Notes: generated from the letters alone by a model not told the origin. 64,000 nt of DNA from a virus (IMGVR_UViG_3300037512_000782:252732-316731); one strand, 5' to 3'; shown: positions 11-44,428, counted from the first letter of the stretch. Translations and numbers: made by a program.

Positions 11-37
11 AACTGATACTAACCCAGCGGGGCTGCC
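11..37 (+). promoter_or_regulatory. cassette element copy 1
   Basis: AACTGATACTAACCCAGCGGGGCTGCC; stem AACCCAGCG/CGCTGGGTT. Confidence 0.85.
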
Positions 38-83
38 TCGCTGGGTTATTTCTTTTATACAAACCAACAACCAAGGAGTTAAT

Positions 84-323
84 ATGGCACAGATTGACTG
101 GAATCAGAAAGGACAGGACTTCGCGGAAAACTGGGTACGCGGAAGTCAGCTACCGGAATTTCCCGACGATACAGCAAAGGAACAGTTCACCGAAGGCTAC
201 AAGGTCGGCTGGTGGAACCGTGGAAAGAACGACGCGCAAGCTGGCCGGGAACATTTCAAGGATTTTCCGAACCGCACGGCGATGTTCAGCTACCATGACG
301 GCTGGGAAGACAATTTCTGTTGA
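84..323 (+). CDS. hypothetical protein (79 aa)
   Basis: SD AAGGAG after element 1. Confidence 0.75.
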   Translation: MAQIDWNQKGQDFAENWVRGSQLPEFPDDTAKEQFTEGYKVGWWNRGKNDAQAGREHFKDFPNRTAMFSYHDGWEDNFC

Positions 324-381
324 GGTGAGGCGACTGGGAGAGATCCCAGCCGCCTTTTTCTGCTCGCTGTCCGGATCGGAC

Positions 382-408
382 GACTGGCAGAGACCTTTCG
401 GGACTGCC
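382..408 (+). promoter_or_regulatory. cassette element copy 2
   Basis: GACTGGCAGAGACCTTTCGGGACTGCC. Confidence 0.75.
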
Positions 409-452
409 TCGACAAGATATTTTATTTATGTACCTCAACCAAGGAGCTTTAA

Positions 453-851
453 ATGAAGACCTATGATATCCCTACAGAAAAAAACGTCGTCGCTTTTAAG
501 GACTACGACTTCGACAACCCTTGCGTACCGGAAAAGTACGAGGGCGACTATCCTCACCGTAATTTCTTCAACAAGTACTTTATCCCCATTGTACGCAGCG
601 AAGTGAAGAAGCTGGCGAAGAAGCTTGGCGCTACGGTGAAGTTCAGCTACAACAACTTCGAGTGGACGGCCTTCTTCTGCAAGAACGGCAAGTACGTCTA
701 CGTCGATACGAGCGACCACCGCTGGAACAACTGGTACGACAACGTCATGTACCGCGAGGCCAGCAGCGACCACGACTACCACGGTATCACTGGCAACTAC
801 TGGTGCCGCTACGACAAGCTTGAAGAGAACCTGGCTTCGATCCTCGGCTAG
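453..851 (+). CDS. hypothetical protein
   Basis: SD AAGGAG; C-ending codon bias. Confidence 0.8.
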   Translation: MKTYDIPTEKNVVAFKDYDFDNPCVPEKYEGDYPHRNFFNKYFIPIVRSEVKKLAKKLGATVKFSYNNFEWTAFFCKNGKYVYVDTSDHRWNNWYDNVMYREASSDHDYHGITGNYWCRYDKLEENLASILG

Positions 852-876
852 GACTGTTCCAGACCCAGCGGCTGCC
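852..876 (+). promoter_or_regulatory. cassette element copy 3 (2-nt deletion in the G-run)
   Basis: GACTGTTCCAGACCCAGCGGCTGCC; stem ACCCAGCG/CGCTGGGT. Confidence 0.8.
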
Positions 877-924
877 TCGCTGGGTTATTTCTTTTATACA
901 ACCAACATAACCAAGGAGTTAAAA

Positions 925-1737
925 ATGCCTAAGATGAACATGTACACCATCAAGTTCTACCGTTCCACTGGATACAACTACGAAACCGACGGGTTCCACA
1001 ACCTCATGGATCGCGTGTGGGAAGCGTTTGACAAGAAGCGCGACGAACTTGTCCGCAAGTACAACGGTTCCTCGATCATTGACTCTTTCGTCCACAACAG
1101 CCGTTCCGATCACGACGGCGAAGAAGGCTTCTTCCAAGAAACGCTTCGCTGTCCGGAAGCTGACGCGAACGACCTCATTCGCTACTTCGCCAGTCTCGAC
1201 AGCAGTGCCGATGTGACCCACGACAAGAGCGAAGTCGTAGAATACAAGAAGGCCAAGACGCTCACCGAAGCGCAGCTCGTATTCCGTCGCTACAAAGACC
1301 GTCGCGTAAACCATCTCTGTTTCGTCATTCCGTCGGTCAAGTGCTACGAACAGCACTTTGTCAATGGTGAACCGACCGAATATGTGATCTGCAACCGTAG
1401 CGCACCCATCACGAAGGCGACCTTCCTCAAGATTTTTGATGGCGTGTTCGGCAAGTATGACGACTGCCCGTTTGAAGTGGCTGTACGTGACAAAAAATTT
1501 GTTGCAAAGCCTCGCAATGACGCCAAGCTCTCGTGGACTTACCTCACGAACCTTGGCTATAACACGAGCATTGATAATTTGAAGGCGTTGCTCTCCTATG
1601 CTCGCCACGGTGCAAAGAATATCGACTTCTATTTGGGCGATTGGCGCAATGGCGAAAAGCTCTACTTGTCTGACGAAGTCAAGATCGGCATTATCAAGGA
1701 ACAGATTGCCGAAAAGCAAGCGAAGCTCGCCAAGTAG
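925..1737 (+). CDS. hypothetical protein (270 aa)
   Basis: Start moved from 820 to the ATG at 925 after SD. Confidence 0.8.
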   Translation: MPKMNMYTIKFYRSTGYNYETDGFHNLMDRVWEAFDKKRDELVRKYNGSSIIDSFVHNSRSDHDGEEGFFQETLRCPEADANDLIRYFASLDSSADVTHDKSEVVEYKKAKTLTEAQLVFRRYKDRRVNHLCFVIPSVKCYEQHFVNGEPTEYVICNRSAPITKATFLKIFDGVFGKYDDCPFEVAVRDKKFVAKPRNDAKLSWTYLTNLGYNTSIDNLKALLSYARHGAKNIDFYLGDWRNGEKLYLSDEVKIGIIKEQIAEKQAKLAK

Positions 1738-1739: not shown

Positions 1740-1766
1740 GACTGGAAGAGACCCAGCGGGACTGCC
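1740..1766 (+). promoter_or_regulatory. cassette element copy 4
   Basis: GACTGGAAGAGACCCAGCGGGACTGCC. Confidence 0.85.
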
Positions 1767-1812
1767 TCGCTGGGTTATTTCCTTTACATAACCAATCAAC
1801 CAAGGAGTTATT

Positions 1813-2384
1813 ATGGGATGGACAAGTTGTTATCGCTGGTATTCGCCTACCGTGCTTCGCAAGGAATATGAACAGGGTATTGCTCGATCCGGCAAGATCA
1901 AGACGTTCGGCTGGTGCGGAAGCTTTCTGAAGTGCTTGCACGTGCCCACGAACCGTCCGTTTGTCGTCGATGTTATGGTGCGCTTCTTCGGCAAGCACGA
2001 AGGGTATGGCTACAAGGACATCGGGGCGCTTCCGGCCCCTATGATACCAACATCGCCGCCGCTCGCTGGCTGCGTCGTGAGCTTGCCAAGCGCAACCTCG
2101 ATCCGGAGTCCTTCGAGCACAACTGGCTGCTGTACTGTACGCGCAAGGCTCGCCACAACAAGATGCTCAAGGAGATCGCTCCAGGAACGGTATTGACTGC
2201 GCTCAGGGACTTCACTATCACTGGCGGCTACAAGTTCAGAGCTGGCGAAGCGATTTCGGTCATCAGCGTACGTCGAGGCCGCATAATCTGTACGCCTCAC
2301 TTAGCGCACTGGCCTACTATGAGCTTGTCGTCGGATATTTTCATTCCGTCGCCCTACAAGGACTATCCGCTGGTGGCCGTGTAG
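1813..2384 (+). pseudogene. frameshifted phage protein gene (or single-base assembly error near 2020-2030)
   Basis: SD-led ORF 1813 reads ...YGYKDIG; continuation ...GPYDTNIAAARWLRREL is in the -1 frame and ends at TAG 2384. Confidence 0.55.
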
Positions 2385-2410
2385 ACTGGAGGCAGCCCAG
2401 CGGGGCTGCC
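2384..2410 (+). promoter_or_regulatory. cassette element copy 5
   Basis: GACTGGAGGCAGCCCAGCGGGGCTGCC; alternative stem GGCAGCCC/GGGCTGCC. Confidence 0.85.
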
Positions 2411-2452
2411 GTCCAGTTTTATTTTATTTATACAATCAACCAAGGAGTTAAC

Positions 2453-3061: not shown

Positions 3062-3241
3062 ATGTTTAAATTTTTGAAACGGCTGTTCTGCCGTCATCAC
3101 TGGAAACGTAGTGTACAGCGACGGCGCAATTTCAATTATGGATCGACATCGTTTTCGTACTACGACTTCTGTGTGTGCAAGTGTACCAAATGCGGTAAGA
3201 AGAAACTTATGAAACAGTATCACTGGGTCGCAATGAACTGA
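3062..3241 (+). CDS. small Zn-ribbon-like protein
   Basis: LFCRHHW...CKCTKCGK; SD AGGAG. Confidence 0.65.
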   Translation: MFKFLKRLFCRHHWKRSVQRRRNFNYGSTSFSYYDFCVCKCTKCGKKKLMKQYHWVAMN

Positions 3242-3262
3242 CACCGTTCCGGCGGGGCTGCC
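3236..3262 (+). promoter_or_regulatory. cassette element copy 6
   Basis: AACTGACACCGTTCCGGCGGGGCTGCC. Confidence 0.85.
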
Positions 3263-3309
3263 TCGCTGGGTTATTTTCTTTATACAACCAATCAACCAAG
3301 GAGTTAACA

Positions 3310-3906: not shown

Positions 3907-3933
3907 GACTGGCGATAATCCGGCGGGGCTGCC
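3907..3933 (+). promoter_or_regulatory. cassette element copy 7
   Basis: GACTGGCGATAATCCGGCGGGGCTGCC; stem AATCCGGCG/CGCCGGATT. Confidence 0.85.
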
Positions 3934-3973
3934 TCGCCGGATTATTTTCTTTATACAACCAAGGAGATCAACC

Positions 3974-4411
3974 ATGCCTACCATGAGAGAATTTATCCAG
4001 TCCAATCCGGTCATCTTCGGCAACAAGCGTTTCACCAAGGCTCTTGACAAAGTATTCGGCGACGACCAGTCCAAGCACACCGTTCAGTTCACTTCAGACG
4101 GCGAGCGCGTCAACATCAATTACGCCTCGAAGGACGAAGGCAATCTCATCTTCCAACTCTGCAAAAACAGGGTTGGCGACGGCGAACCCTTCCCAGAATC
4201 GATCGAGGTGCGCCTCTATTACAAGTACAACGGCAGAGATATCTTCCATGACGGCTTCCAGTGCAAGTTCATACCGTACAACGCTACCCAGCAGACCATG
4301 ACAGCGGTACTGCGGCAGCTGTTCAAGATCCACAGTGAAATGACAAACATTCGGCGAGCCCAAGCACAAATCCATAGCCACTTGTTAAAGCTCCACAAGA
4401 TCATGGACTGA
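3974..4411 (+). CDS. hypothetical protein, paralog of 12289-12720
   Basis: Shared NPVIF/HPVLF and AQAQI/HQAQI motifs. Confidence 0.8.
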   Translation: MPTMREFIQSNPVIFGNKRFTKALDKVFGDDQSKHTVQFTSDGERVNINYASKDEGNLIFQLCKNRVGDGEPFPESIEVRLYYKYNGRDIFHDGFQCKFIPYNATQQTMTAVLRQLFKIHSEMTNIRRAQAQIHSHLLKLHKIMD

Positions 4412-4432
4412 CCCAGATCCGGCGGGGCTGCC
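4406..4432 (+). promoter_or_regulatory. cassette element copy 8
   Basis: GACTGACCCAGATCCGGCGGGGCTGCC; alternative stem GGGGCTGC/GCAGCCCC. Confidence 0.85.
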
Positions 4433-4471
4433 ACGCAGCCCCATTTCTTTTATACAACCAAGGAGTTAAAC

Positions 4472-4987
4472 ATGAGCGTTATCTACAACAACACCAAAAA
4501 TGCAACATTTGAAACCGCGAACGCATTCCTCGAAGCTCGCGCTCGCGAAGCTGGCCTCAAGGATTTCGAGTTCGAAAAGGCGTACACCTATCTGAACACG
4601 GAAGTCATCAGTGAAGGACACACGATCGAGTGCGTGTACTTTGAACACAAGTTGAGCCGCCGCAGTATCGGCGTGACCGTCGAGGACGGCGAGGTCACGA
4701 AGGTACTGGTGTACGACACGAACGGCGACTGTCTGAACGTCAAGCTGAACAGCGCAGCCAAGATTCGCAAGAACCCCAAGGACTTCTTCAAGCAGACCTT
4801 GACGCCCAAGAAATACAGTGCGTCGGCGAGCATTAACTACACTATCGAGGTCGAGTGCGTGGCCTACGACGAGGACGAAGCTCGCGAGAAGCTGAAAGAA
4901 GCTGCTTACAACAACTATCTGACAGCGAAGATCGACGGCGTTGACGCTACAATCGACGACATCAGCGACGACGGCTACGTAAAATAA
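4472..4987 (+). CDS. hypothetical protein
   Basis: SD after element 8. Confidence 0.8.
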   Translation: MSVIYNNTKNATFETANAFLEARAREAGLKDFEFEKAYTYLNTEVISEGHTIECVYFEHKLSRRSIGVTVEDGEVTKVLVYDTNGDCLNVKLNSAAKIRKNPKDFFKQTLTPKKYSASASINYTIEVECVAYDEDEAREKLKEAAYNNYLTAKIDGVDATIDDISDDGYVK

Positions 4988-5014
4988 GACTGGCGATAAC
5001 TCGGCGGGGCTGCC
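4988..5014 (+). promoter_or_regulatory. cassette element copy 9
   Basis: GACTGGCGATAACTCGGCGGGGCTGCC. Confidence 0.85.
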
Positions 5015-5054
5015 TCGCTGGGTTATTTTATTTTCACAACCAAGGAGATCTAAG

Positions 5055-5336
5055 ATGGCTACGAAAAAGCAAACCAAGAAGTCTAAAATGTTTCATTTGA
5101 GCGGCTTTCACAAATTCGAGGACGGCATTGAAATTATTAACGTCGAAACACTGTATACGACTCGCCGCAAGGCCGCCAAGGAAATCGCCGACATAATGAA
5201 CGAAACTATCCAGGAAAGCCGCTCTGACAAGCCGAAGGTAAAGGTCGCCGACTGCATGGACGGCTACAGACTGTCGCCGCATGACAGTTTCGAGGAGATC
5301 GGCATTGATATTGTCGAGTCGCACTTACCAGAATAG
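5055..5336 (+). CDS. hypothetical protein
   Basis: SD after element 9. Confidence 0.75.
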   Translation: MATKKQTKKSKMFHLSGFHKFEDGIEIINVETLYTTRRKAAKEIADIMNETIQESRSDKPKVKVADCMDGYRLSPHDSFEEIGIDIVESHLPE

Positions 5337-5362
5337 ACTGGTGCTGGATCGGCGGGACTGCC
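5336..5362 (+). promoter_or_regulatory. cassette element copy 10
   Basis: GACTGGTGCTGGATCGGCGGGACTGCC; stem GATCGGCG/CGCCGATC. Confidence 0.85.
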
Positions 5363-5410
5363 TCGCCGATCTATTCCCTTTATACAACCAATCAACCAAG
5401 GAGTTCTAAC

Positions 5411-6070
5411 ATGCTTTCAAGAGACCAGCTCATCCGTACTTGCCAAGACAACAACATCACGTGCCTTATGTGCTGCCAAGGCTACGAGGCCACCGAAGAG
5501 GACGTTCTGAACGACAACCCAGAACTTGCGCCGGACAACGACGACGCACAGTATCCCAGCCCAGAAGTCCAAAAGGAACGTGACCTCAAGGAATCGGTCA
5601 TGATCCGTATGCTGCAAGAAAACCTCGACTTCGGCCCTCTGATGGAAACCGACGACGAAACCGACCGTGACGATCATTCAGAACGCATGGGCGCTCGCTG
5701 CGACATCGTGGAAGTAATCGCCGAACGCTGGGTGGCTGGTTCCTACTCGGACAACTACCAGAAGACCGAACTGGAACTGGCTCAGGCCGACTGCAACGTG
5801 CTGGTTTCCAAGTGGTACGGTTCAGAACTACTCGACGAAATCGTCGAAGCTCTCTGGGCTACTGGGGAAACTATCACGAACGAACGTGTCGCCGAATACG
5901 TCGGTAGGACAAAGATTGCAGAATTTTTCACTACGACCTCTGCAAAGAACGCCGACGAATTTGCCGAAGAATGTTCTACTGGCTTCTCTGGCAGCCCTAT
6001 CGACGGCTCGCCGTTCACTCGTGACGCCAGCGACGCCTACGCCCACGAATACTGGGACGCCCACGTCTAA
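5411..6070 (+). CDS. hypothetical acidic protein
   Basis: SD after element 10. Confidence 0.8.
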   Translation: MLSRDQLIRTCQDNNITCLMCCQGYEATEEDVLNDNPELAPDNDDAQYPSPEVQKERDLKESVMIRMLQENLDFGPLMETDDETDRDDHSERMGARCDIVEVIAERWVAGSYSDNYQKTELELAQADCNVLVSKWYGSELLDEIVEALWATGETITNERVAEYVGRTKIAEFFTTTSAKNADEFAEECSTGFSGSPIDGSPFTRDASDAYAHEYWDAHV

Positions 6071-6097
6071 GACTGGAACGGATCCGGCGGGGCTGCC
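6071..6097 (+). promoter_or_regulatory. cassette element copy 11
   Basis: GACTGGAACGGATCCGGCGGGGCTGCC. Confidence 0.85.
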
Positions 6098-6150
6098 TCG
6101 CCGGATTATTCATTCTACACAACCAAACAACAAACAACCAAGGAGTTATT

Positions 6151-7035
6151 ATGAAGGTTATTTCTCTGTTCGACGGCATTTCTTGCGGTCAAGTCGCTCT
6201 CAACCGTGCTGGCATCAAGGTAGACCAGTACGTCGCCTTCGAGATCGAGGCTTCCGCCATCAAGATCACCCAAGCCAACTTCCCTGACACTGTCCAAGGC
6301 GGCGACGTGACCAAGGCCGACTTCACCCAGTACCCAGCCGACCTCATCATCGGCGGCAGCCCTTGCCAGTTCTGGTCTGGCGCTCGCGCTGGCCACGGTC
6401 GCGAAACTACAGCCGACGGTCTGGGCTGGTCGCTCTTCCAGCAGTATGTCCGCGCCAAGAACGAAAGCGGCGCTCGCTGGTTCCTCTACGAGAACAACGC
6501 CTCGATCCACCAGAACATCAAGGACGCCATCAGTGACGCGCTGGGTGTCCAGCCGATCGAGATCAACTCCGCGCTGGTATCCGCCCAGAACCGCCGTCGC
6601 TGCTACTGGACGAACATTCCCAACGTGGCACAGCCAGCCGACCGTGGGATCTTGTTGTCGTCCGTACTGGAACACGGCACTGTTGACCGCGAAAAATCTT
6701 TGTGCTTGACGCGCCGCTATTCCGAAGCCTACGGAACCCAAGCCTATATGTGTCGCCGCTATCTCGGCAAGTCCATGGGTCAGATGGTGTTCGAGGGCGA
6801 CATGGAAGCTCTGAAAAATCTTTTCAAGCGCAACGACCACTTCAGCGACATGGACGGCGAACTCACTGGCTGCCGTATCCGCCAGCTCACGCCGCTGGAA
6901 GCTGAAAGGCTCCAGACACTGCCAGACAACTACACGGCTTCTGAACCGAACCGCAAGAAGCGTCTGGAAGCCATCGGCAACGGCTGGACGGTCGAAGTCA
7001 TCGCCCACTTGCTGTCTGGACTGGCTGAAAAATAA
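6151..7035 (+). CDS. DNA (cytosine-5)-methyltransferase
   Basis: Motif I SLFDGISCG, motif IV GGSPCQ, VI ENN, VIII QNRRR, IX-X LTPLEAERLQ...IGNGW. Confidence 0.92.
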   Translation: MKVISLFDGISCGQVALNRAGIKVDQYVAFEIEASAIKITQANFPDTVQGGDVTKADFTQYPADLIIGGSPCQFWSGARAGHGRETTADGLGWSLFQQYVRAKNESGARWFLYENNASIHQNIKDAISDALGVQPIEINSALVSAQNRRRCYWTNIPNVAQPADRGILLSSVLEHGTVDREKSLCLTRRYSEAYGTQAYMCRRYLGKSMGQMVFEGDMEALKNLFKRNDHFSDMDGELTGCRIRQLTPLEAERLQTLPDNYTASEPNRKKRLEAIGNGWTVEVIAHLLSGLAEK

Positions 7036-7092: not shown

Positions 7093-7119
7093 AACTGGCA
7101 CACTGGCGGCGGGGCTGCT
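7093..7119 (+). promoter_or_regulatory. cassette element copy 12 (no own stem)
   Basis: AACTGGCACACTGGCGGCGGGGCTGCT. Confidence 0.75.
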
Positions 7120-7162
7120 GGATCGACGTATTCATCAGATACAACCCAAACAAGGAGACATT

Positions 7163-7510
7163 ATGGGACTCGACATTACTCTCAAGACATGCAAGAGCGA
7201 CAAATATTTTCGCAAGGTCAACTTCTTGATTCCGTTCGTGGAATCAAAGATCGGCTGCACGGTGGAGAACTGTGAGACAGTCAAGCTGACCAAGGACAAC
7301 CTCGTGGAACTGGTTGATCGGTGCAAGGAAGTGCTTGCCGATCACTCTAAGGCCGAGAAGCTGCTGCCTACTCGCGACGGGTTCTTCTTCGGCGGCACAG
7401 ACTACGACGAATGGCACTTCGATGATGTCAAGGAAGTACAAGACAAGGTAAGCGACCTTCTGTCAACGATGTCTAATCGGATGAAGGCCAGCTTCCATGC
7501 CTGGTGGTAG
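7163..7510 (+). CDS. conserved phage protein (MGLD...YFRK type)
   Basis: Pattern MGLDI..YFRKVNFL..FFFGGTDYDE; SD. Confidence 0.75.
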   Translation: MGLDITLKTCKSDKYFRKVNFLIPFVESKIGCTVENCETVKLTKDNLVELVDRCKEVLADHSKAEKLLPTRDGFFFGGTDYDEWHFDDVKEVQDKVSDLLSTMSNRMKASFHAWW

Positions 7511-7536
7511 ACTGGTTTCGATCCGGCGGGGCTGCC
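7510..7536 (+). promoter_or_regulatory. cassette element copy 13
   Basis: GACTGGTTTCGATCCGGCGGGGCTGCC. Confidence 0.85.
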
Positions 7537-7583
7537 TCGCTGGATTATTTTATTTCTACAACCCACACAACCAAGGAGATATT

Positions 7584-8020: not shown

Positions 8021-8047
8021 GACTGGTTTCAATCCAGCGGGGCTGCC
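8021..8047 (+). promoter_or_regulatory. cassette element copy 14
   Basis: GACTGGTTTCAATCCAGCGGGGCTGCC; stem AATCCAGCG/CGCTGGATT. Confidence 0.85.
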
Positions 8048-8087
8048 TCGCTGGATTATTTTATTTATACAACCAAAGGAGCTAACA

Positions 8088-8531
8088 ATGATCGAATACA
8101 AGAGATACAATAACTTAGATGAATTGACCGCTGGTCTGGGAGAATACGTAAATGACTGTCTGACCAACGCGCACGGCATTATCGGCAGCATCGACATCAA
8201 GGCCGAAGATGTGCCGAGTTCGGAAGAATGGGATGCCATCACGACGGACGACGCCAGAAAGGACGCTTGGGATAATGCGGTCGGCTGCTACGGCATTAAA
8301 GCTGTCGGACGTGAGTTCGATTCTGAAGCGTCGATCTTGGTCGGCGCGTACTATGGCACGAGCAACATTCTGACGAGCAAGCAGTTTGACTTTGATACGT
8401 CCGACGAAGATGTCGATGAAATTGTCCAAGGACTACTGGTCAATTTGCTTGCTGGCGGCGATGACCTCAATAGGTCGTACCTTGTCAGAATCACAGAAAC
8501 CGATGAAATGCCGGAGACGATGCTGCTGTAG
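8088..8531 (+). CDS. hypothetical protein
   Basis: SD after element 14. Confidence 0.8.
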   Translation: MIEYKRYNNLDELTAGLGEYVNDCLTNAHGIIGSIDIKAEDVPSSEEWDAITTDDARKDAWDNAVGCYGIKAVGREFDSEASILVGAYYGTSNILTSKQFDFDTSDEDVDEIVQGLLVNLLAGGDDLNRSYLVRITETDEMPETMLL

Positions 8532-8534: not shown

Positions 8535-8561
8535 AACTGGCCTACATCCGGCGGGGCTGCC
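8535..8561 (+). promoter_or_regulatory. cassette element copy 15
   Basis: AACTGGCCTACATCCGGCGGGGCTGCC. Confidence 0.85.
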
Positions 8562-8599
8562 TCGCTGGATTATTCCCTTTATACAACCAAGGAGACATT

Positions 8600-8998
8600 A
8601 TGAAAGTTTACAAGTTAGTCAGAAAACTCAAGAACGGCAGCATCAAGCCGCTGTTCATCGGAAAGAAGCAGCCGTTCGTGATCGGTCAGAAGATGAAGTG
8701 CGAGTTCCTTCCTACCAAGGGGTTCGCTCCCAGATCGGTAGACGACAAGAACTCCGGCGGCTGGCACTGCTGCTTCCGTCCAGTCGCTCCGCACCTCGCC
8801 GAAACACTCAAGACTGGCGAAGAACGAGTCTGGCTCGAATGTGAGGCCGAAGGCACCACCAAGACCTACCACAGAGGCGAACACCAAGGCGGCGACTGGA
8901 TCCTTGCCGAGTACATCACGCCGCTGCGTGAAGTGCCGTGGGATGAAGTCCGCCAGATGCAAGAACAGTACAGCAACCAGCACAACACCGAGGAGTAA
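8600..8998 (+). CDS. hypothetical phage protein
   Basis: SD after element 15; GFAPRS..GWHC..PHL..VWLECE..QGGDW. Confidence 0.8.
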   Translation: MKVYKLVRKLKNGSIKPLFIGKKQPFVIGQKMKCEFLPTKGFAPRSVDDKNSGGWHCCFRPVAPHLAETLKTGEERVWLECEAEGTTKTYHRGEHQGGDWILAEYITPLREVPWDEVRQMQEQYSNQHNTEE

Positions 8999-9000: not shown

Positions 9001-9291
9001 ATGAAAAATTGCAAGATGAATACCAAGGTCAACGCCCTTATCAAGAAGGTCGAGGAAGCTCAAGAAAAAACTGTCGCCATTCTCGGCGACCTCAAAAACT
9101 GGAAGTCCTATCCCAATGAGGACGCCAGCAGCGACCGTCTGATCGAAAAGGTGTTCAAGGAAGTCGACGACTTCGTTAACACAGTAAACGGCTTGCAGAA
9201 GATGTCAGAGGCAGCCAGCCAGTTGCACACCCAGCAACTCGACGGCCTTGTAGACGACATTCTGCACAAGCGCGGAATATACAAGGAGTAG
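9001..9291 (+). CDS. hypothetical helical protein
   Basis: SD GAGGAG; coupled to upstream gene. Confidence 0.75.
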   Translation: MKNCKMNTKVNALIKKVEEAQEKTVAILGDLKNWKSYPNEDASSDRLIEKVFKEVDDFVNTVNGLQKMSEAASQLHTQQLDGLVDDILHKRGIYKE

Positions 9292-9317
9292 ACTGGCGGC
9301 AGCCCTGCGGGACTGCC
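9291..9317 (+). promoter_or_regulatory. cassette element copy 16
   Basis: GACTGGCGGCAGCCCTGCGGGACTGCC. Confidence 0.85.
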
Positions 9318-9360
9318 TCATTCTGATATAATTTAGACACAACCAATAAGGAGCTACATT

Positions 9361-10155
9361 ATGGCTAACAAGGAATCCAAAAAGCTTTTCCACGAGGACA
9401 CCAAGACGGTGACGCCGAACGGTATCGAACGCTACAGCTTCGACCGCGAGAAGCACACCTACGGCTTCAGTCTCGCTGGCAACATCAAGGTGGGCAAGAT
9501 CGCCACGTGGTCTACGCTGCTCGGCGACTACACCTACAAGGGTCTCAACGGTCTGCTCGCCGATATCAAGGGCACGTGCAAGAACTGTGCAGCTTGCAAG
9601 AAGAGCTGCTACGTCCGCGCCTCCTACCGCTTCCCTGGCGTCGTCCAGTCCCAGGCGATCAACACTTGGGGCCTCCGCCACGAACTCAAAAAGGTCGAGG
9701 CCGATCTCGCCACCCAGATCGAGAAGCACCACATCAAGATCGCCCGTATCAACCAGAGCGGCGAGCTTGAAAACGAACGCCAGATGGCCATGTGGTGCCG
9801 CCTCGCTATCCGCTTCCCCGATACCAAGTTCTACATCTATACCAAGATGTACGATATCGTCGGAAAATTCTTGGAAAAGGGCGACGTGCCGCCGAACTTC
9901 ACCGTGCTTTTCTCCGTCTGGCACGAGTACGGCGCGGAAGAGTACAAAAAATATTCTCACATGCCCAACGTCAAGGCGTTCGTCTTCGACGACGGCGTGA
10001 ACTGCCACTTGCCGACCAAGTGCTACTGCCCCGCGTACTTGATCCTCGACAAGAGCGGCAAGGCCAAGCTCAACCCCGATCCGAAGTCGCACTGTGAAAA
10101 CTGCCGACTTTGTATCGACAGCAAGGTCAAGGTGATCGCTTGCCACGACCATTAA
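9361..10155 (+). CDS. Gp88-like phage protein with Cys clusters
   Basis: GNIKVG, TCKNCAACKKSCY, RINQSGEL, FYIYTK, CENCRLC resemble the recalled GP88 family. Confidence 0.6.
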   Translation: MANKESKKLFHEDTKTVTPNGIERYSFDREKHTYGFSLAGNIKVGKIATWSTLLGDYTYKGLNGLLADIKGTCKNCAACKKSCYVRASYRFPGVVQSQAINTWGLRHELKKVEADLATQIEKHHIKIARINQSGELENERQMAMWCRLAIRFPDTKFYIYTKMYDIVGKFLEKGDVPPNFTVLFSVWHEYGAEEYKKYSHMPNVKAFVFDDGVNCHLPTKCYCPAYLILDKSGKAKLNPDPKSHCENCRLCIDSKVKVIACHDH

Positions 10156-13351: not shown

Positions 13352-13362
13352 AAAATTTTTTA

Positions 13363-35434: not shown

Positions 35435-35461
35435 GACTGATCCAAGGTCTGCGGGACTGCC
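35435..35461 (+). promoter_or_regulatory. cassette element copy 39
   Basis: GACTGATCCAAGGTCTGCGGGACTGCC; stem GGTCTGCGG/CCGCAGACC. Confidence 0.85.
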
Positions 35462-35501
35462 TCCGCAGACCATTTTAACACGCACACACAAGGAGACTAC
35501 T

Positions 35502-36056
35502 ATGAAGAAGCTTTTACTAATCATTCTCGCTTTCGCCATGTCCGCAGTCGCGGTCGTGTTCGACAATACCATCAACCGCAAGGAAATGCGCATCTACATG
35601 CGCTCTGGGAACTGGAACACTGGCGACCGCTATACTACCATGCCAGTCGTCGTGAACGGCAAGGTGACTTGTCCCTATGTCGGCAGCATCTTCGCCGAGC
35701 CGTACAAGGACGGCACATGTCCGGCGGTGAACGTGTACCACTTGGTACGCATAGCCAGATCCAAGAAGGGTCTGGACTGCTATTACGACTACACGATAGG
35801 CAAGGACTTCATGTTCTCCGTCTACAACCAGCAAGGGTGCCCAGACATCCTAGCCGCATACGACGGACTAGAGTTCTTTCGTGGTGTCTACTTTGATTCC
35901 GTTGACAATTTCAAGCTGTACTACCCGGATTCGCTGCTCACGCAGACCTTCGAGGGCAACTTCGATTTGTATCCGAGGGTGAAGGCGCAGATCCGCTACC
36001 GACGGATCAACATGCGCAAGGACAAGAAGAACGAAGTAATCAGGTTCGGAGACTGA
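35502..36056 (+). CDS. putative exported protein
   Basis: Signal peptide MKKLLLIILAFAMSAVA. Confidence 0.75.
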   Translation: MKKLLLIILAFAMSAVAVVFDNTINRKEMRIYMRSGNWNTGDRYTTMPVVVNGKVTCPYVGSIFAEPYKDGTCPAVNVYHLVRIARSKKGLDCYYDYTIGKDFMFSVYNQQGCPDILAAYDGLEFFRGVYFDSVDNFKLYYPDSLLTQTFEGNFDLYPRVKAQIRYRRINMRKDKKNEVIRFGD

Positions 36057-36077
36057 TTCCGCCACGGCGGGACTGCC
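36051..36077 (+). promoter_or_regulatory. cassette element copy 40
   Basis: GACTGATTCCGCCACGGCGGGACTGCC. Confidence 0.85.
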
Positions 36078-36107
36078 TCCTTTTGTTATAAAAATTTACG
36101 CAAGGAC

Positions 36108-36136
36108 TTGACAAAAGTCAAAATAAGAGTTATATT
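36108..36136 (+). promoter_or_regulatory. sigma70-type promoter upstream of FtsK gene
   Basis: TTGACA-N17-TATATT. Confidence 0.8.
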
Positions 36137-36155: not shown

Positions 36156-37826
36156 ATGTACAAAGGTTGCTACAATAGCTATAAGTTCGATATGACCGAC
36201 ACTCATGCCATTGCCTACTACGGCATTGACACCAAGGACTTCACGTTTATAAAGAACAGCTATGTGTTCAATCGTCGCACCAACTTGGAAGGTAGCGCCG
36301 ATGCCGATCTGGCTGAACGTGTTGTCGGAGCTATCTCTAGCTTCGGTGTGAATGGTGTCCAAGTGGATAGCATCGAGTGCGGCCCCGTGGTGACTCGCGT
36401 GAACTTGAAGTTGCCGTATGGTGTTCGCATCAAGACGGTTGCAGACTTGTCTAACGACATCGCTATGCAGCTCAATGTCAAGAGCGTGTCCGCTACTCCG
36501 GTGCCCGAAAAGGGTGTCCTCGCCTTGGACATTCCCGCCAAGGAACGCAAGGTCATCCGTTTGGGAAATGTTCACACGGAGAAGTCTAGCACTATGGCTC
36601 TTCCGCTTGAACTCGGCGTGTCTGTCACTGGCGAAGCTCGTGCTATCGACTTGGCGAAGGCTCCGCATCTTCTGATTGCTGGTCAGACTGGCTCTGGCAA
36701 GTCCGTCTGCATCAACTCCATCATCTGCTCGTTGCTCCGTAACGTGCCGCTGAACGACTTCGACTTGATGCTTGTCGATCCGAAGGGTGTCGAATTGAAC
36801 GATTACCGCTTCGTTCCGAACTGCATCAACAAGAAGGTTCTCGTCGAACCGAACGAGTCGCTTGATGGCCTCCGTTGGCTCTGCAAGGAAATGGATCGCC
36901 GCTATGCTATCTTGACGAAGTATGGGCATCGCAACCTTCAGTCCTACAACGATTGGGTGAGCAAGCAGCCTGTCGGTAAGGATTGTGTAGAGAAGATGCG
37001 CTATGTTGTCTGTGTGGTTGACGAGTTTGCCGACTTGATGATGACTGCTGGCACCGAACTCACGGCAATCGTGCAGAGACTGGCTCAGAAGAGCCGTGCG
37101 GTTGGTATTCACTTGATTCTCGCCACGCAGAGACCGTCTGTCAAGGTGGTCACTGGCGATCTCAAGGCAAACTTGCCGTGCCGTATCGCCTTCAAGGTCA
37201 GTTCCACCACCGACTCCGTGACCATCCTCGGTCATGGCGGTGCCGAACGCTTGCTCGGTATGGGCGACATGATTCTCAGCAACAACGATGTTGATGAGCG
37301 CTTGCATGGTGTGTATCTTGATGACCACGACATCTTCTACACCGTCGCGGTTCTCTACAACACGACCGTAAACTCCATCATTCGCGAAGTCGATTTCGTG
37401 AACGGAAAGGCATCTAACTCGTTGGGCGTTCCGTCTTGGCTCTTGGAGACCATGAGCGAATGCGGTCGCCGTCAGCTCGCTAGCGGTTCTCCGTCTTGGC
37501 TTGAAAAGCTCGTAGATATTAACCGCAAGGTTTGGGATCGCTCGGTTGACGAGAACAAGTACACCTTCGCCACGTTCATGTGCCGTATGGCAAAGTATTA
37601 TGGCGAGGTCGAAGCTATCCGTCCGCTTGTCGCTAGCAGCGTGTTCGGAAAGGCCGTGTCGGCTCGTTCTGTTGGCAATGTGTACGGCACTATGCTTGAT
37701 ACCATGCTTCGTCTTCCGACAAAGTATGCACTTGGTCTCGGATACTCCGACCCTGATGTAAAGCAAGCGTTGAGCCGAACTGCAAGTGTCAACGATCAGT
37801 TGGATTACTTGAAGTCCATCGCATAG
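36156..37826 (+). CDS. ftsK: FtsK/SpoIIIE-family DNA translocase motor (alpha/beta domains; no N-terminal TM)
   Basis: GPVVTR, PHLLIAGQTGSGKS (Walker A), VDPK, VVDEFADLM (Walker B), LATQRPS, GAERLLGMGDM; SD GGAGG. Confidence 0.9.
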   Translation: MYKGCYNSYKFDMTDTHAIAYYGIDTKDFTFIKNSYVFNRRTNLEGSADADLAERVVGAISSFGVNGVQVDSIECGPVVTRVNLKLPYGVRIKTVADLSNDIAMQLNVKSVSATPVPEKGVLALDIPAKERKVIRLGNVHTEKSSTMALPLELGVSVTGEARAIDLAKAPHLLIAGQTGSGKSVCINSIICSLLRNVPLNDFDLMLVDPKGVELNDYRFVPNCINKKVLVEPNESLDGLRWLCKEMDRRYAILTKYGHRNLQSYNDWVSKQPVGKDCVEKMRYVVCVVDEFADLMMTAGTELTAIVQRLAQKSRAVGIHLILATQRPSVKVVTGDLKANLPCRIAFKVSSTTDSVTILGHGGAERLLGMGDMILSNNDVDERLHGVYLDDHDIFYTVAVLYNTTVNSIIREVDFVNGKASNSLGVPSWLLETMSECGRRQLASGSPSWLEKLVDINRKVWDRSVDENKYTFATFMCRMAKYYGEVEAIRPLVASSVFGKAVSARSVGNVYGTMLDTMLRLPTKYALGLGYSDPDVKQALSRTASVNDQLDYLKSIA

Positions 37827-37852
37827 ACTAAAATAATGGGTACGGGGCTGCC
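37826..37852 (+). promoter_or_regulatory. cassette element copy 41
   Basis: GACTAAAATAATGGGTACGGGGCTGCC; 13-bp stem with two G-T pairs. Confidence 0.8.
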
Positions 37853-37896
37853 ACGGCTCCGTATCCATTTGTCACAAACTAACCAAAGGAAGCAAT

Positions 37897-38376: not shown

Positions 38377-38405
38377 TTGACAAACCAGTAGGTAGAAGTT
38401 ATATT
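38377..38405 (+). promoter_or_regulatory. sigma70-type promoter
   Basis: TTGACA-N17-TATATT. Confidence 0.8.
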
Positions 38406-38962: not shown

Positions 38963-39230
38963 ATTCTACAAAGTCAGTTTGTCGCTCACTGGACTGATGT
39001 GCCTAGCGTCTGGCGTATACACGATATGGCGTTTCGACCAGTGGAATGACGGCGTTCTCCAAGTGATTTTGGGAACTATCTTACTGGTCGGCTACATCCT
39101 CTTGGATGTCTTGTCGAATATGGCGATTGTCACCAAGGTTGAAGTCATCAAGCCGGACGGCGTGAACGTGCAAATCGTCAACAAGAACTGTATCGACGGC
39201 AACGGGACTGCCTCGGACAAAGATAAATAA
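38955..39230 (+). CDS. 2-TM membrane protein
   Basis: Hydrophobic; reads through element 42. Confidence 0.7.
   Translation: MVKFYKVSLSLTGLMCLASGVYTIWRFDQWNDGVLQVILGTILLVGYILLDVLSNMAIVTKVEVIKPDGVNVQIVNKNCIDGNGTASDKDK
39186..39212 (+). promoter_or_regulatory. cassette element copy 42 (inside 3' end of upstream ORF)
   Basis: AACTGTATCGACGGCAACGGGACTGCC. Confidence 0.75.
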
Positions 39231-39265
39231 GGCACACTCAACAAATTAAACAAAAAGGAATTTTT

Positions 39266-40061: not shown

Positions 40062-40547
40062 ATGTTTACGAAAATCAGCAACTTCATTGAACGCATTTCC
40101 GAATGGTTCTTGTGGAGAAGCATCAAGAAGAAACTGCGCCCATTTGTCAAGGTAAGGAAGGTATTGCAGCCGAACGAAGTTCCGAGCTACATGCATCTCA
40201 TTCTCCGTTCGCTCCAGAATCGCGAGTATTCTGGAATTATCTTGCTGTCCAACAACAAGCGGATCTACAACTACATCCAGAGGACTCTGGGAGATACCAA
40301 TACAGTGTTCTTCCGTGAGCCGTTCACCTTCAATCCGGACAAGCTCTTCGACAAGATCAAGGAGTACGCCACGCCTCTCCATGTCGATTACGCGGTGACT
40401 GGCTACGGGAACGACTCTCCGTTCTACATTCTGGCCGTGCCGAACGACCGCAAGCCGAACGACGGACTGAACTACGATCAGCGGGACTGCCACAAGAAAC
40501 CATTGAATAAGCGCACCAAAAACCACAAAAAACACAACAAGGAGTAA
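40062..40547 (+). CDS. hypothetical protein
   Basis: Start moved to the ATG at 40062; reads through element 43. Confidence 0.7.
   Translation: MFTKISNFIERISEWFLWRSIKKKLRPFVKVRKVLQPNEVPSYMHLILRSLQNREYSGIILLSNNKRIYNYIQRTLGDTNTVFFREPFTFNPDKLFDKIKEYATPLHVDYAVTGYGNDSPFYILAVPNDRKPNDGLNYDQRDCHKKPLNKRTKNHKKHNKE
40465..40491 (+). promoter_or_regulatory. cassette element copy 43 (inside 3' end of upstream ORF)
   Basis: GACTGAACTACGATCAGCGGGACTGCC. Confidence 0.8.
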
Positions 40548-41082: not shown

Positions 41083-41778
41083 ATGATTGACACGCAGTTC
41101 GAAGAAAAAATCTCTGTACAGCTTGCTCAGCGCATCGAAGCTCGCATGCCGTTCGCCAAGAAAATCTATGACGCGGTCGGCAGCTTCTATGTGGCTGGCA
41201 ACAGCCTTAACGAGGAAGCGCCGAACGATTTCGACATATACCCCGTATGGAAGAATCAGTTCGACGATGTCCGCAGCAAGATCGGTGAAGACAACGTAGT
41301 GTGCGTGACGAAGAACGCCGTTACTGCGAAGATCGATGGCAGAACCGTCCAGTTCTGCAACTACTTCAAGCCGTCGCTCGAAGAACTTCTGAAGTCATTC
41401 GACTTCGCCCATGTCCAAGTGGGTGCGAGGTTCACCAAGGCGCTCGACGGTTCTCCGATAAGCAACGTGGACTTCACGCCTGACTGGCTCGTCGCCAAGT
41501 CCACCGGGCAGACGTTCTATACCCATTCCGAATATCCGATTTCCTCGCTCGTTCGTATCAACAAGTACATCAAGCGCGGAAACTACGTCGGAAAGTCGTA
41601 TATCAGGGATGTCGTCCGCATCTTGACCGACATCCTCAACCGTGGCATCGAGGACTACGAAGACTTCAAGGATCAGCTCGACGCCATCGACCTCGGCTTG
41701 TTCGGAGAAGACGCCAGTACGGTTCTCGGACTGTTCCACGCATTCCAGAACGTGAAGCCGACTCCGTCGATAGAATGA
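41083..41778 (+). CDS. nucleotidyltransferase-fold protein (PolA/CCA-like head)
   Basis: FYVAGNSL...PNDFDIY; VQFC; LLKSFDF. Confidence 0.6.
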   Translation: MIDTQFEEKISVQLAQRIEARMPFAKKIYDAVGSFYVAGNSLNEEAPNDFDIYPVWKNQFDDVRSKIGEDNVVCVTKNAVTAKIDGRTVQFCNYFKPSLEELLKSFDFAHVQVGARFTKALDGSPISNVDFTPDWLVAKSTGQTFYTHSEYPISSLVRINKYIKRGNYVGKSYIRDVVRILTDILNRGIEDYEDFKDQLDAIDLGLFGEDASTVLGLFHAFQNVKPTPSIE

Positions 41779-41799
41779 TTTGGGTACGGCGGGACTGCT
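41773..41799 (+). promoter_or_regulatory. cassette element copy 44
   Basis: GAATGATTTGGGTACGGCGGGACTGCT; stem CGGCGG/CCGCCG extended imperfectly. Confidence 0.8.
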
Positions 41800-41852
41800 C
41801 CGCCGACCGATCATTTTGGCAACCGACATCAACATCAACAAGGAGAACCATC

Positions 41853-42534: not shown

Positions 42535-42604
42535 GAATTAACTCGACTGTCAAGGTCTTTACTATATTTCATCACATCAACAACCATTAACAAAAGGAAA
42601 CGGA

Positions 42605-43102
42605 ATGAATACCAATACCGCAGAAACTAACACTACTGGAGATCTTTCACGAAAGAACCTCCCCTACACCGCCCAAGAAGACAAGAAGCTTCGCGACGGT
42701 GCAACTACGCTCCCTGGCCGTACGCTGAAGGCCGTGTATCAGCGCCGTCGTCAACTCGGACTCGTGAAGCAAGCCGCGTGGAATGAGGATGAACTCAAAC
42801 TCGCCCGTCAGAACATCGTTCCGGCTGGCCGTACTAAGGCCGCTCTCCGCTGTCTCCGCCACAAGCTCGGCCTCAACAAGAAGACCACCATGACCGCTAG
42901 CGGCCAGATGGAACTGACGCTTGCTCCGGTGTCCGCACACAACAACCAGCACATTTCCGACATCGTCGGCAAGTTCGTGAAGACCGTGAACATTCTCCGC
43001 AAGAGTGGAATGTCCGTCGCCGACATCGCCGACCAGACTGGCAAGACCAAGGAACAGGTGCAGAACGCCATCAATCTGGCCGATTCTCTCCGTTCCAAAT
43101 AA
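42605..43102 (+). CDS. Myb/SANT-like tandem repeats + C-terminal HTH (putative regulator)
   Basis: YTAQEDKKLR..RTLKAVYQRRRQLGL; WNEDELKL..RTKAALRCLRHKLGL; GMSVADIADQTGKTKEQV. Confidence 0.65.
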   Translation: MNTNTAETNTTGDLSRKNLPYTAQEDKKLRDGATTLPGRTLKAVYQRRRQLGLVKQAAWNEDELKLARQNIVPAGRTKAALRCLRHKLGLNKKTTMTASGQMELTLAPVSAHNNQHISDIVGKFVKTVNILRKSGMSVADIADQTGKTKEQVQNAINLADSLRSK

Positions 43103-43116
43103 TTTTTAATTATCGC

Positions 43117-43153
43117 AATGGGAGTCTGGGCGTGTACCGGATTCCCATTTTTT
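43117..43153 (+). terminator. intrinsic terminator
   Basis: AATGGGAGTCTGG/CCGGATTCCCATT then a T-run. Confidence 0.7.
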
Positions 43154-43174
43154 ATAGCACAAAGAGGTGTTTGT

Positions 43175-43771
43175 ATGGAAAAAGTTTTTACCAAGCGCGT
43201 ATACAACAAGTGGACGCCCGAAGAGGACGACATGATCCGCCGTGGCGAGATTCCGCCCAACCATCCGAGCTACGCCAACTGTCTAACTCGCGCACGTAAG
43301 CTGGGCTTCAAGTTCGTCAAGAAGCGCCAAGAAGGAGGCCGCTGGAGCGAACTCCAGGACAACATGGTACGCAAGGGCGTAGTGCCCCCAGAGAAGGGTC
43401 TGGAACGCGCCATACAGCGAGGCAACGAGCTTGGCGTAGACTTCTTGAAGCTGTTCTACGAGAAGATGGACACTAACGGCTTGCAAGGGCTTACGAAGGA
43501 CGAACGCATGCTCATCATGGCCGCGAACGAGAACTCCTTGAAGGAGTTCAAGGTCAAGGACAGCGCCGCCATACACAAAGCCGCGCAGCGAGGAAAGAAA
43601 TACTTCTTGATGCATGCGAAGTCGCTGCTCTCGATTCAGGACATCGCGAACAAGGAGAACTGTTCTCGACAGAATGTCCATCGACTGATCGATGCGTACA
43701 AGATCCAGTATTTCAACGAACACTGTTTCGACCAAGCGGTCAAGGAAGCTGAAGATGAAGGAATTCTTTAA
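43175..43771 (+). CDS. Myb-like repeats + sigma-region-4-like HTH (putative regulator)
   Basis: WTPEEDDMIR..RARKLG; WSELQDNMVR..RGNELG; SIQDIANKENCSRQNVHRLI. Confidence 0.65.
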   Translation: MEKVFTKRVYNKWTPEEDDMIRRGEIPPNHPSYANCLTRARKLGFKFVKKRQEGGRWSELQDNMVRKGVVPPEKGLERAIQRGNELGVDFLKLFYEKMDTNGLQGLTKDERMLIMAANENSLKEFKVKDSAAIHKAAQRGKKYFLMHAKSLLSIQDIANKENCSRQNVHRLIDAYKIQYFNEHCFDQAVKEAEDEGIL

Positions 43772-44060
43772 GGATGTGGGCTGGAGTGCGTTGTGCTTTA
43801 CTGGCGCACTCATCTTGCTGACGGTCGCACTCGTGGTGATTGCCGCCGTCGTGGCTCCGTGCTTCATCGTGCCCGGTCTGCTGGTCGAACACTGGGGCAA
43901 GACGTGGTATACAATGCTTCTTGGGCTGGCGTCCATTATCGTGTACTGGAGCATTGTCGATGTAATCAGTTCCGCCATTTGGCGCAAGATTACTGGCCGT
44001 CCAAAGCTCAAGCGAGGCGAGATCTACATTGAATACGCCGAATCTGGAGAACGCTCGTAA
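43755..44060 (+). CDS. 2-TM membrane protein
   Basis: Start moved to the ATG at 43755; hydrophobic. Confidence 0.7.
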   Translation: MKEFFKDVGWSALCFTGALILLTVALVVIAAVVAPCFIVPGLLVEHWGKTWYTMLLGLASIIVYWSIVDVISSAIWRKITGRPKLKRGEIYIEYAESGERS

Positions 44061-44086
44061 TGAGCATCGATTACTAGAGGTTTAAC

Positions 44087-44428
44087 ATGGCAAAGCAGAA
44101 AGCGTCCATCTTGGACTGGACGGCAAACAAGGAGTCCAAGGAGAAGTACCAGCTCAAGTTCCGTCTGGAGAACTTGCCTGGTGTTGGCACCATCGAAATG
44201 GTTGCTGGCGAATGCGTCGCCGACAGTCCGGTTACGGCTGGCAAGGCGATGGAAGCAAACTTGCAGCGCCGCGTCGGGACTGCCAAGTACAAGTATGTAG
44301 CCGAAGCGAAGATCGTTGACGAGAACGGCAAGGATAGGGCCTTCTTGCAGATCGACAAGAGCTACAACAAACAAACCAATGCCTACGTCACCACGCCCTC
44401 GTGGGGACACTGGCTAAATGTATTCTAA
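44087..44428 (+). CDS. hypothetical protein
   Basis: SD GAGGT. Confidence 0.75.
   Translation: MAKQKASILDWTANKESKEKYQLKFRLENLPGVGTIEMVAGECVADSPVTAGKAMEANLQRRVGTAKYKYVAEAKIVDENGKDRAFLQIDKSYNKQTNAYVTTPSWGHWLNVF
44258..44284 (+). promoter_or_regulatory. cassette element copy 45 (mid-ORF, uncertain)
   Basis: AACTTGCAGCGCCGCGTCGGGACTGCC; correct spacing but lacks the A/C-rich leader. Confidence 0.45.

Follow-up and report, generated by a model that had tools for sequence, protein, structure and literature searches.

What is the function of a short sequence that recurs some 45 times on one strand within 44 kb of a phage genome, with mostly unrelated small genes between its copies? The question is raised by a 64,000-nucleotide stretch of viral DNA, here called the window, which comprises bases 252,732-316,731 of the 348,092 bp contig IMGVR_UViG_3300037512_000782 (estimated to be 91% complete). 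An original prediction, made from the sequence alone, had described an array of about 45 gene cassettes, each delimited by a conserved 27 bp element, and had proposed an integron-like or promoter/stem-loop (PeSL)-like accessory-gene system. The best reading of the element is that it represents a putative phage-specific, non-sigma70 promoter for the host RNA polymerase. A joint mechanism in which such a promoter carries a nested terminator and also serves as a recombination seed is considered probable.

The repeat array is real and chance is excluded as its origin. Searching the window for RAMTG-N12-CGGGRCTGCY gives 39 exact matches, every one of them on the plus strand, versus none in 100 dinucleotide shuffles. 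The 9-mer core CGGG[AG]CTGC occurs at 43 plus-strand sites, the first at 28 and the last at 44275, and three bare core matches without the flanks are found on the minus strand. Together with a degenerate copy at 851-905, these sites make 'about 45' a fair count. The last site matches the core as predicted, but lies inside an open reading frame (ORF), has no leader and has the lowest matrix score. In the whole contig the 10-mer core has 72 forward and two reverse matches. A 56-column weight matrix trained on the copies, with which the full genome was scanned as the original prediction had proposed, gives 73 matches at 15 bits or more on the plus strand, none on the minus strand and none in a shuffled genome, so that the motif is not equally frequent at random positions or on both strands. 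All 73 matches are confined to one 65 kb block (genome 232-297 kb).

With position 0 taken as the first C of the core, from which all offsets are counted, conservation extends from -17 to +38, or about 56 bp rather than 27 bp, in blocks at fixed spacing. The order is GACTGG, CGGCGGGRCTGCC, TAT, a pyrimidine-purine (Y-R) step within TATACAACC, an A/C-rich leader, AAGGAG and ATG. GACTGG occupies -17 to -12, with its A, T and G nearly invariant, CGG occupies -3 to -1, CGGGRCTGCC 0 to 9 and T-A-T-T 19 to 22, where A20 and T21 are present in 71 of 71 copies. T.TATACAACCAA follows at approximately 26 to 38, with a pyrimidine at 30 in 62/71 and a purine at 31 in 67/71 copies. The two GACTG motifs are 20 bp apart, approximately two helical turns, and no insertion or deletion occurs between -17 and +22 among the 71 copies. 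In most copies the preceding ORF has a stop codon that touches or overlaps GACTG, and in 49/71 this codon is at most 30 nt before the core. A start codon preceded by a Shine-Dalgarno sequence lies 47-88 nt past the core in 70/71, in agreement with the predicted succession of T-run, A/C-rich leader, AAGGAG and ATG. Conservation falls on these positions also among 155 non-identical copies that come from 29 loci of relatives (A20 in 154, T21 in 155, Y30 in 150 and R31 in 150), although only the copies other than the one full copy required per locus count as independent evidence, since the search for relatives demanded the core and at least one such copy. No Rfam family matches the element.

Up to 44.4 kb the window contains 86 plus-strand genes, 42 of which have an element copy 40-100 nt before the start codon. 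The median gap to the preceding gene is 72 nt for genes with a copy versus 11 nt for those without, and 32 of 41 genes without a copy have a gap of 30 nt or less; because these gaps are so tight, the latter genes are regarded as operon-internal. There is one element per transcription unit, not per gene. The expectation that each gene carries its own expression unit was therefore correct for about half of the genes (42/86) and incorrect for the rest, which lie in tight operons behind one copy.

Many copies fold as a GC-rich stem followed by a T-run, by several different geometries. Symmetric hairpins place the core at the apex with a CUG or ACUGC loop (e.g. cores 28, 3924, 5005 and 8038), in other copies the core forms the 5' or the 3' arm (Table 1), and beyond 17 kb many copies use other hairpin solutions or none. 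Overall, the hairpin solutions number at least four, and many copies lack a hairpin. An independent terminator consensus scan of 1-20 kb yielded 42 terminator-like sites versus 22.4 +/- 5.0 expected, and 16 of the 18 strongest were element copies on the plus strand. Folding at -15 kcal/mol or below is observed for 34/71 copies and, when relatives are included, for 93/226 copies versus 8/226 shuffled sequences. The features of an intrinsic terminator (a GC-rich stem-loop, a coding-strand T-run and a position after a stop codon) are found in about half of the copies, whose predicted terminator function is thereby established at the sequence level. Covariation in the symmetric stem is modest over all copies (pairs -4/16 to -6/18 are 0.47-0.53 paired versus 0.39-0.41 in shuffled sequences) because the copies use different hairpin solutions. 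Since the core is variously apex, 5' arm or 3' arm, sequence and structure appear to be selected separately, indicating that the sequence is conserved for its own sake and that a terminator has been built on the core repeatedly. In about half of the copies the hairpin and T-run around the core would stop readthrough from the preceding gene and so insulate each unit.

With a strong terminator directly before it, a gene has to have a promoter of its own, for which the element is the only conserved candidate. The putative transcription start is the purine of Y30-R31, read as -1/+1. TAT would then occupy -12 to -10 with its invariant A at -11, the invariant core would cover -34 to -22, its CGGGRCTGCC segment -31 to -22 and the second GACTG block -48 to -43. 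An A at -11 is the base that is flipped out by all sigma70-family factors. The segment from the -10 element to the start is AT-rich and in terminator copies consists of the T-run itself, which would thus double as the AT-rich -10 region. Features resembling those of the sigma70 family are present, namely the A at -11, a purine at the putative start 6-8 nt past a -10-like element and phage sigma genes. None of 43 copies scores as TTGACA-N16-18-TATAAT, save where a separate host-type promoter adjoins. A sigma54 reading of CTGGCA...CTGC was rejected, the GG-to-GC distance being 20 and not 12, as was an extracytoplasmic function (ECF)-type reading of GGGAC as GGAAC, which would lie 11 or 20 bp from a candidate -10 element and not 16-17 bp.

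Three promoter-like classes are found in the genome: a host-type class, TGATAAACT and the cassette element. The host-type class comprises approximately 40 promoters of the form TTGACA-N17-TATATT genome-wide, often with TG, five of which lie in the window's part of the block (Table 1). Three host-type promoters fill long gaps that have no element copy, and three to five neighbouring cassettes do carry a promoter of the host sigma70 consensus. Three host-type promoters of the block have their -35 hexamer at a strong hairpin's apex, a placement like that of the core in the element, and on the basis of this common nested design the core is equated with the -35 region. At genome 244450 and 247949 (window -8281 and -4782) lie two hybrids in which TTGACA adjoins the core and TATATT covers the TATT of the element, followed by a TATACAA leader in the same register as that of the element; the second of them has a mutated core, CGGGATTGCC. 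A host promoter can evidently be swapped in on the same scaffold. A third motif, (A)ACTGATAAACT(G), has approximately 35 copies on both strands between 8 and 200 kb of the genome, 25-35 nt before start codons, where it precedes structural and replication genes, in some cases as back-to-back pairs; one copy lies at about 63809 on the minus strand of the window. We take this motif to resemble the T4 late promoter TATAAATA. It has ACTG(C) in common with the element core, a similarity for which we have no explanation.

The element would most likely be recognized by one of two phage sigma70-family factors or by a MotA-like phage activator. The genome contains two sigma70-family genes with regions 2 and 4, at genome 198197-198937 on the plus strand and 15500-14688 on the minus strand; immediately upstream of one of them lies a TTGGAA-N17-TATATT promoter. 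As host-type promoters precede the sigma genes, the temporal class of the element is probably middle or delayed-early. Two phage sigmas and two non-host promoter classes would make a tidy match. No match to the beta and beta-prime RNA polymerase domain families was found in the genome, although very divergent phiKZ-type subunits could escape such a search. The T7-type polymerase family likewise gave no match in the genome, nor did it in the control genomes, and this result is uninformative.

Evidence for recombination comes from relatives of the phage. These were not found in IMG/VR, where a scan with the element pattern gave nine single, chance-like matches and protein anchors gave no match (GP88-family gene) or only distant, unrelated phages (FtsK-like gene), nor among GenBank phages, to which 40 kb of the window gave no megablast match. 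A scan of metagenome contigs with the element pattern identified many rumen contigs with 2 to 16 copies each, always on one strand, and a scan of species-representative genomes identified arrays on contigs binned into six Fibrobacter metagenome-assembled genomes (MAGs) and one Prevotella MAG. In blastn comparisons with the genome, the cassettes of relatives are 65-94% identical and mosaic. Their order is roughly kept, with many cassettes that have no counterpart, absences of single cassettes and some moves. In one relative (L100), for example, the counterpart of gene 5411-6070 stands immediately before that of 4472-4987, and in another (L091) the counterpart of 5055-5336 is found between those of 8088-8531 and 8600-8998.

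The original prediction had called for a comparison of relatives in order to see whether such changes break at the element, and this is what is observed. Of 145 internal homology-block ends, 45% fall within -25 to +70 of a core versus 11% at random positions, with maxima for 5' ends at -21 to -16 and for 3' ends at +27 to +45. Relative L091 lacks the cassette 7163-7510: its element agrees with copy 7110 through +43 and then continues into the gene that in the window follows copy 7527, which places the joint in the leader. This joint (7139 to 7557) recurs in RNA-library contigs from two runs. Neighbouring copies also resemble each other more than distant ones do (Spearman -0.40, the lowest of 500 permutations being -0.11) and three regional subtypes are present, as expected if copies recombine or convert locally. 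Since the copies are the only sequence common to otherwise unrelated cassettes, they may serve as substrates for homologous recombination, which would delete, insert and move cassettes. The comparison demonstrates this outcome, for which recombination between copies is the presumed mechanism. In one RNA-library contig 5027 is followed by 4449, so that cassette 4472-4987 runs from its end back into its start; a k-mer graph loop, a circle or a tandemly repeated copy in some relative could each account for this joint.

Several observations weigh against this combination of a phage-specific promoter, nested terminator and recombination seed. The T at -7 of the standard -10 hexamer is not conserved in the element, and the core lies 4 bp nearer to the -10 element than a canonical -35 element, so that an ordinary sigma region 4 would not necessarily recognize it. 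MotA (PF09158) has only a noise match of 11.9 bits in the genome and AsiA (PF09010) has none. Four bovine metatranscriptome runs contain contigs that are 90-99% identical over most genes of 1-20 kb, and some of these RNA-library contigs run through the element; as they are assembled contigs, they show neither ends nor strand, and the start site is neither confirmed nor refuted by them. Adapter-flanked ends of RNA contigs at 5452, 5950 and 6174 fall inside genes. Where contigs end at the element, the graph may have broken at the repeat, and RNA contigs were used only for joints confirmed by DNA contigs. In addition, the element fills the intergenic space, so that breaks at the element and breaks between genes are inseparable by comparison alone, and joints in short-read and k=31 contigs may in part be assembly paths through the repeat.

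A different promoter register is an unlikely but coherent alternative. In this register GACTGG would be the -35 element and (G)RCTGCC, 15-16 bp away, the -10 element, with a start approximately 16-20 nt past the first core base, for which the invariant A in TAT is one candidate, and with TAT and ACAACC being transcribed. The occurrence of GACTG in both blocks at a distance of 20 bp fits -35/-10 spacing, T-A-T itself provides a Y-R-Y start context and the putative late motif AACTGATAAACTGC contains ACTGC, so that a phage sigma might read ACTGC as a -10-like element. However, the -10 element of this register (CGGGRCTGCC) would be GC-rich and poor for melting, whereas +19 to +31 is AT-rich, and Y30-R31 is conserved at the right distance from TAT. 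The hybrids and the hairpin-capped host-type promoters, which put the -35 element beside or at the core and the -10 element on TAT(T), likewise favour the register in which the core occupies the -35 region.

It is improbable that the element is not a promoter at all and that long RNAs from a few host-type promoters cover the cassettes. In that case the element would be an RNA-level signal, combining a terminator or attenuator with a site for an RNA-binding protein, endoribonuclease or antiterminator and with a translation leader. Its strand specificity, its position in the transcribed strand and its frequent hairpins are consistent with this proposal, as are the mere five host-type promoters in the window's part of the block and the RNA-library contigs that cross the element. 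A structured RNA site is nevertheless at odds with a sequence that is conserved while its hairpin form is not and that has no Rfam match, and the upstream GACTG, which overlaps stop codons at a fixed 20 bp from the core, looks like DNA geometry. The strong intrinsic terminators formed by about half of the copies would silence everything downstream, and host-type promoters substitute for the element in the same slot.

Still more doubtful is the possibility that the core is the site of a dedicated phage protein that switches on the cassette promoters and also acts on folded core hairpins to excise and insert cassettes. Such a dual-role protein would provide integron-like gene capture in a jumbo phage independently of the recombinase families. 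A weaker version of this proposal would have a single sequence coding three ways, for sigma recognition, termination and recombination seeding, and defining a sigma cascade that is not known from T4-type phages. A site-specific recombination site of the integron type, an attC-like hairpin worked by a dedicated recombinase, is very improbable: it would explain a conserved core in variable inverted repeats, one per cassette and in a single orientation, the cassette-precise gains and losses in relatives and the end-to-start joint of cassette 4472-4987, but neither tyrosine (PF00589) nor serine (PF00239) recombinases have a match in the 91%-complete genome, the controls being positive, so that this part of the original prediction fails; moreover, the hairpin geometry varies with many copies lacking a hairpin, the L091 joint lies in the leader and not at a fixed point of the core, the cassettes are not promoterless and a conserved -10-like TAT with a start context is needless for recombination.

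The phage is a T4-superfamily jumbo myovirus of the rumen, with a match to the T4-type Gp23 capsid family (E = 3.5e-64) and with a tail sheath, a baseplate wedge protein, PolB and NrdD. The arrays in Fibrobacter MAGs and a Fib_succ_major-domain protein encoded in the array point to Fibrobacter, which is probably the host. As predicted, the cassette genes are mostly unrelated small hypotheticals: the 91 small cassette proteins have a median length of 137 amino acids and include a single pair of paralogues, Pfam gives no match for 13 of the 20 largest and PHROG none for nine of ten small ones. The few cassette genes that belong to a family are listed with the element copies in Table 1. An Rfam tRNA match at 12051-12171 on the plus strand (40.7 bits, whole model 1-71) is spread over 121 nt, suggesting a tRNA-like gene with an insert of approximately 50 nt; ARAGORN reported no tRNA in the window. 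Outside the window, the terminase large subunit ORF (genome 8629-11619, plus strand, 996 amino acids) matches terminases only over its first ~210 residues and has a helicase-like middle stretch, and it may therefore carry an insertion or intein.

Table 1. Element copies, promoters and genes of the cassette array (window positions unless marked; core, position of the first core base).
Feature	Position	Strand	Remarks
Whole cassette array	genome 232,231-297,053	+	begins ~20.5 kb before window
Window part of cassette array	11-44313	+	pattern, core and matrix matches
Element copy	11-66	+	core 28; G-type; symmetric terminator hairpin
Element copy	382-437	+	core 399
Degenerate element copy	851-905	+	core minus 3 nt; hairpin, T-run, leader and Shine-Dalgarno intact; precedes gene 925-1737
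Element copy	1740-1795	+	core 1757; symmetric terminator hairpin
Element copy	2384-2439	+	core 2401, 3' arm of hairpin
Element copy	3236-3291	+	core 3253; symmetric terminator hairpin
Element copy	3907-3962	+	core 3924; 15-bp symmetric terminator hairpin
Element copy	4406-4461	+	core 4423, 5' arm of hairpin
Element copy	4988-5043	+	core 5005; symmetric terminator hairpin
Element copy	5336-5391	+	core 5353; symmetric terminator hairpin; followed by several different genes in relatives
Element copy	6071-6126	+	core 6088; precedes C5 DNA methylase gene
Element copy	7093-7148	+	core 7110; joined to next cassette's gene in relative L091
Element copy	7510-7565	+	core 7527; symmetric terminator hairpin
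Element copy	8021-8076	+	core 8038; symmetric terminator hairpin
Element copy	8535-8590	+	core 8552; symmetric terminator hairpin
Element copy	9291-9346	+	core 9308; precedes GP88-family gene
Element copy	10228-10283	+	core 10245
Element copy	10742-10797	+	core 10759; symmetric terminator hairpin
Element copy	11364-11419	+	core 11381; symmetric terminator hairpin
Element copy	12222-12277	+	core 12239
Element copy	13325-13380	+	core 13342; tandem host-type promoter follows
Element copy	14212-14267	+	core 14229
Element copy	15692-15747	+	core 15709
Element copy	16520-16575	+	core 16537, 3' arm of hairpin
Element copy	18889-18944	+	core 18906
Element copy	19483-19538	+	core 19500
Element copy	20879-20934	+	core 20896; precedes Fib_succ_major-domain gene
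Element copy	21932-21987	+	core 21949
Element copy	23165-23220	+	core 23182
Element copy	23668-23723	+	core 23685
Element copy	24583-24638	+	core 24600; degenerate upstream block
Element copy	25771-25826	+	core 25788
Element copy	27536-27591	+	core 27553
Element copy	28549-28604	+	core 28566, 3' arm of hairpin
Element copy	29450-29505	+	core 29467
Element copy	30219-30274	+	core 30236, at hairpin apex
Element copy	32063-32118	+	core 32080
Element copy	35435-35490	+	core 35452
Element copy	36051-36106	+	core 36068; followed by tandem host-type promoter, then FtsK/SpoIIIE-like gene
Element copy	37826-37881	+	core 37843
Element copy	39186-39241	+	core 39203
Element copy	40465-40520	+	core 40482
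Element copy	41773-41828	+	core 41790
Doubtful element copy	44258-44313	+	core 44275; within ORF 44087-44428; no leader or Shine-Dalgarno; lowest matrix score
Host-type promoter TTGACA-N17-TATATT	13363-13391	+	tandem after element copy
Host-type promoter TTGACA-N17-TATATT	26611-26639	+	in the element's slot; -35 hexamer at strong hairpin apex; classic PeSL flavour
Host-type promoter TTGACA-N17-TATATT	32566-32594	+	sequence match
Host-type promoter TTGACA-N17-TATATT	36108-36136	+	tandem after element copy
Host-type promoter TTGACA-N17-TATATT	38377-38405	+	-35 hexamer at strong hairpin apex
C5 cytosine DNA methylase gene	6151-7035	+	one of few cassette genes with a family
GP88-family gene	9361-10155	+	one of few cassette genes with a family
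Fib_succ_major-domain protein gene	20946-21479		domain match
FtsK/SpoIIIE-like ATPase gene	36156-37826	+	one of few cassette genes with a family
Nucleoside-hydrolase-like gene	44931-45689	+	weak match
MAG-binned array loci	L288, L293, L255, L216, L308, L223, L323, L282, L291, L303; L212, L292, L299, L306		

If the element is a phage-specific promoter with a nested terminator that also seeds recombination, the PeSL principle, by which regulatory cassettes of phage accessory regions act as recombination seeds as well, would extend to a non-host promoter class, to a distant T4-type jumbo phage and to a Fibrobacter host lineage; a limited literature search found no transcription data for Fibrobacter phages. 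The 73 near-identical putative promoters would form a ready regulon for assigning one of the phage sigmas or for finding a new activator. The nested design would constitute a compact insulator, with a terminator stem on the promoter recognition sequence and a U-tract that doubles as the -10 region, which could serve synthetic biology. For annotation, the element delimits transcription units and would mark approximately 125 genes as one temporal class.

Among known systems, integrons (IntI, attI and attC) have in common with this array the co-oriented one-gene cassettes, a repeated element with inverted repeats and a gene content that varies cassette by cassette. They differ in that no integrase and no conserved attC fold are found here, the breakpoints are not at one fixed site and each unit has a promoter-like and a terminator signal in place of one common Pc. 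T4 middle promoters consist of a MotA box at -30 and a sigma70 -10 element and depend on sigma appropriation by MotA and AsiA. As in the proposed reading of the element, a conserved 9-10 bp box centred near -27 to -30 replaces the -35 element, is accompanied by a -10-like element and marks a phage-specific temporal class in a T4-type phage. However, the sequences are unrelated, the -10 element is reduced here to TAT with an extra block at -48 to -43, and two full sigma70-family genes are present instead of MotA and AsiA homologues. Phage sigma-factor regulons, such as those of SPO1 gp28 and phiEco32 gp36, comprise, as proposed for the element, many near-identical non-host promoters that form one temporal class and are served by the host core polymerase with a phage sigma; the link between sigma and element is putative in the present case. 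We know of no description of a nested terminator or of cassette shuffling for such regulons.

The PeSLs of T4-type phages are units that combine a sigma70 early promoter with a stem-loop terminator in hyperplastic regions, for which promoter activity, terminator activity and mini-circles were shown by experiment and at which indels break (Arbiol et al. 2010, PMC2839356; Comeau et al. 2014, PMC4122927). The array resembles them in consisting of small units of a putative promoter and, in about half of the copies, a terminator hairpin, which lie between ORFans (ORFs without known relatives) in the hyperplastic region of a T4-type-capsid phage, in that each unit ends in a Shine-Dalgarno sequence and a start codon, and in that indels, replacements and moves break at the units without a dedicated recombinase. 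It differs in several respects. The early promoter of a PeSL fits the host sigma70 consensus and has an AT-rich region upstream, whereas the element has neither TTGACA nor TATAAT, has an invariant 13 bp core and a second upstream block, and occurs in a genome that keeps separate host-type promoters. The hairpin of a PeSL lies beside the promoter, whereas that of the element is nested, with the core as apex or arm, and 73 copies are concentrated in one 65 kb block. The activities of PeSLs are experimental, whereas the corresponding activities of the element are putative. The original prediction had held that the array matches neither PeSLs nor integrons; this is true of its sequence but not of its architecture, given the Gp23 capsid and the cassettes that carry a sigma70 promoter plus hairpin. 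The predicted PeSL likeness is borne out by an element in the promoter slot, by terminator hairpins in about half of the copies and by cassette gains, losses and moves that break in the element. Since both architecture and evolutionary behaviour match those of PeSLs, the element is best classified as PeSL-like with a putative new class of promoter.

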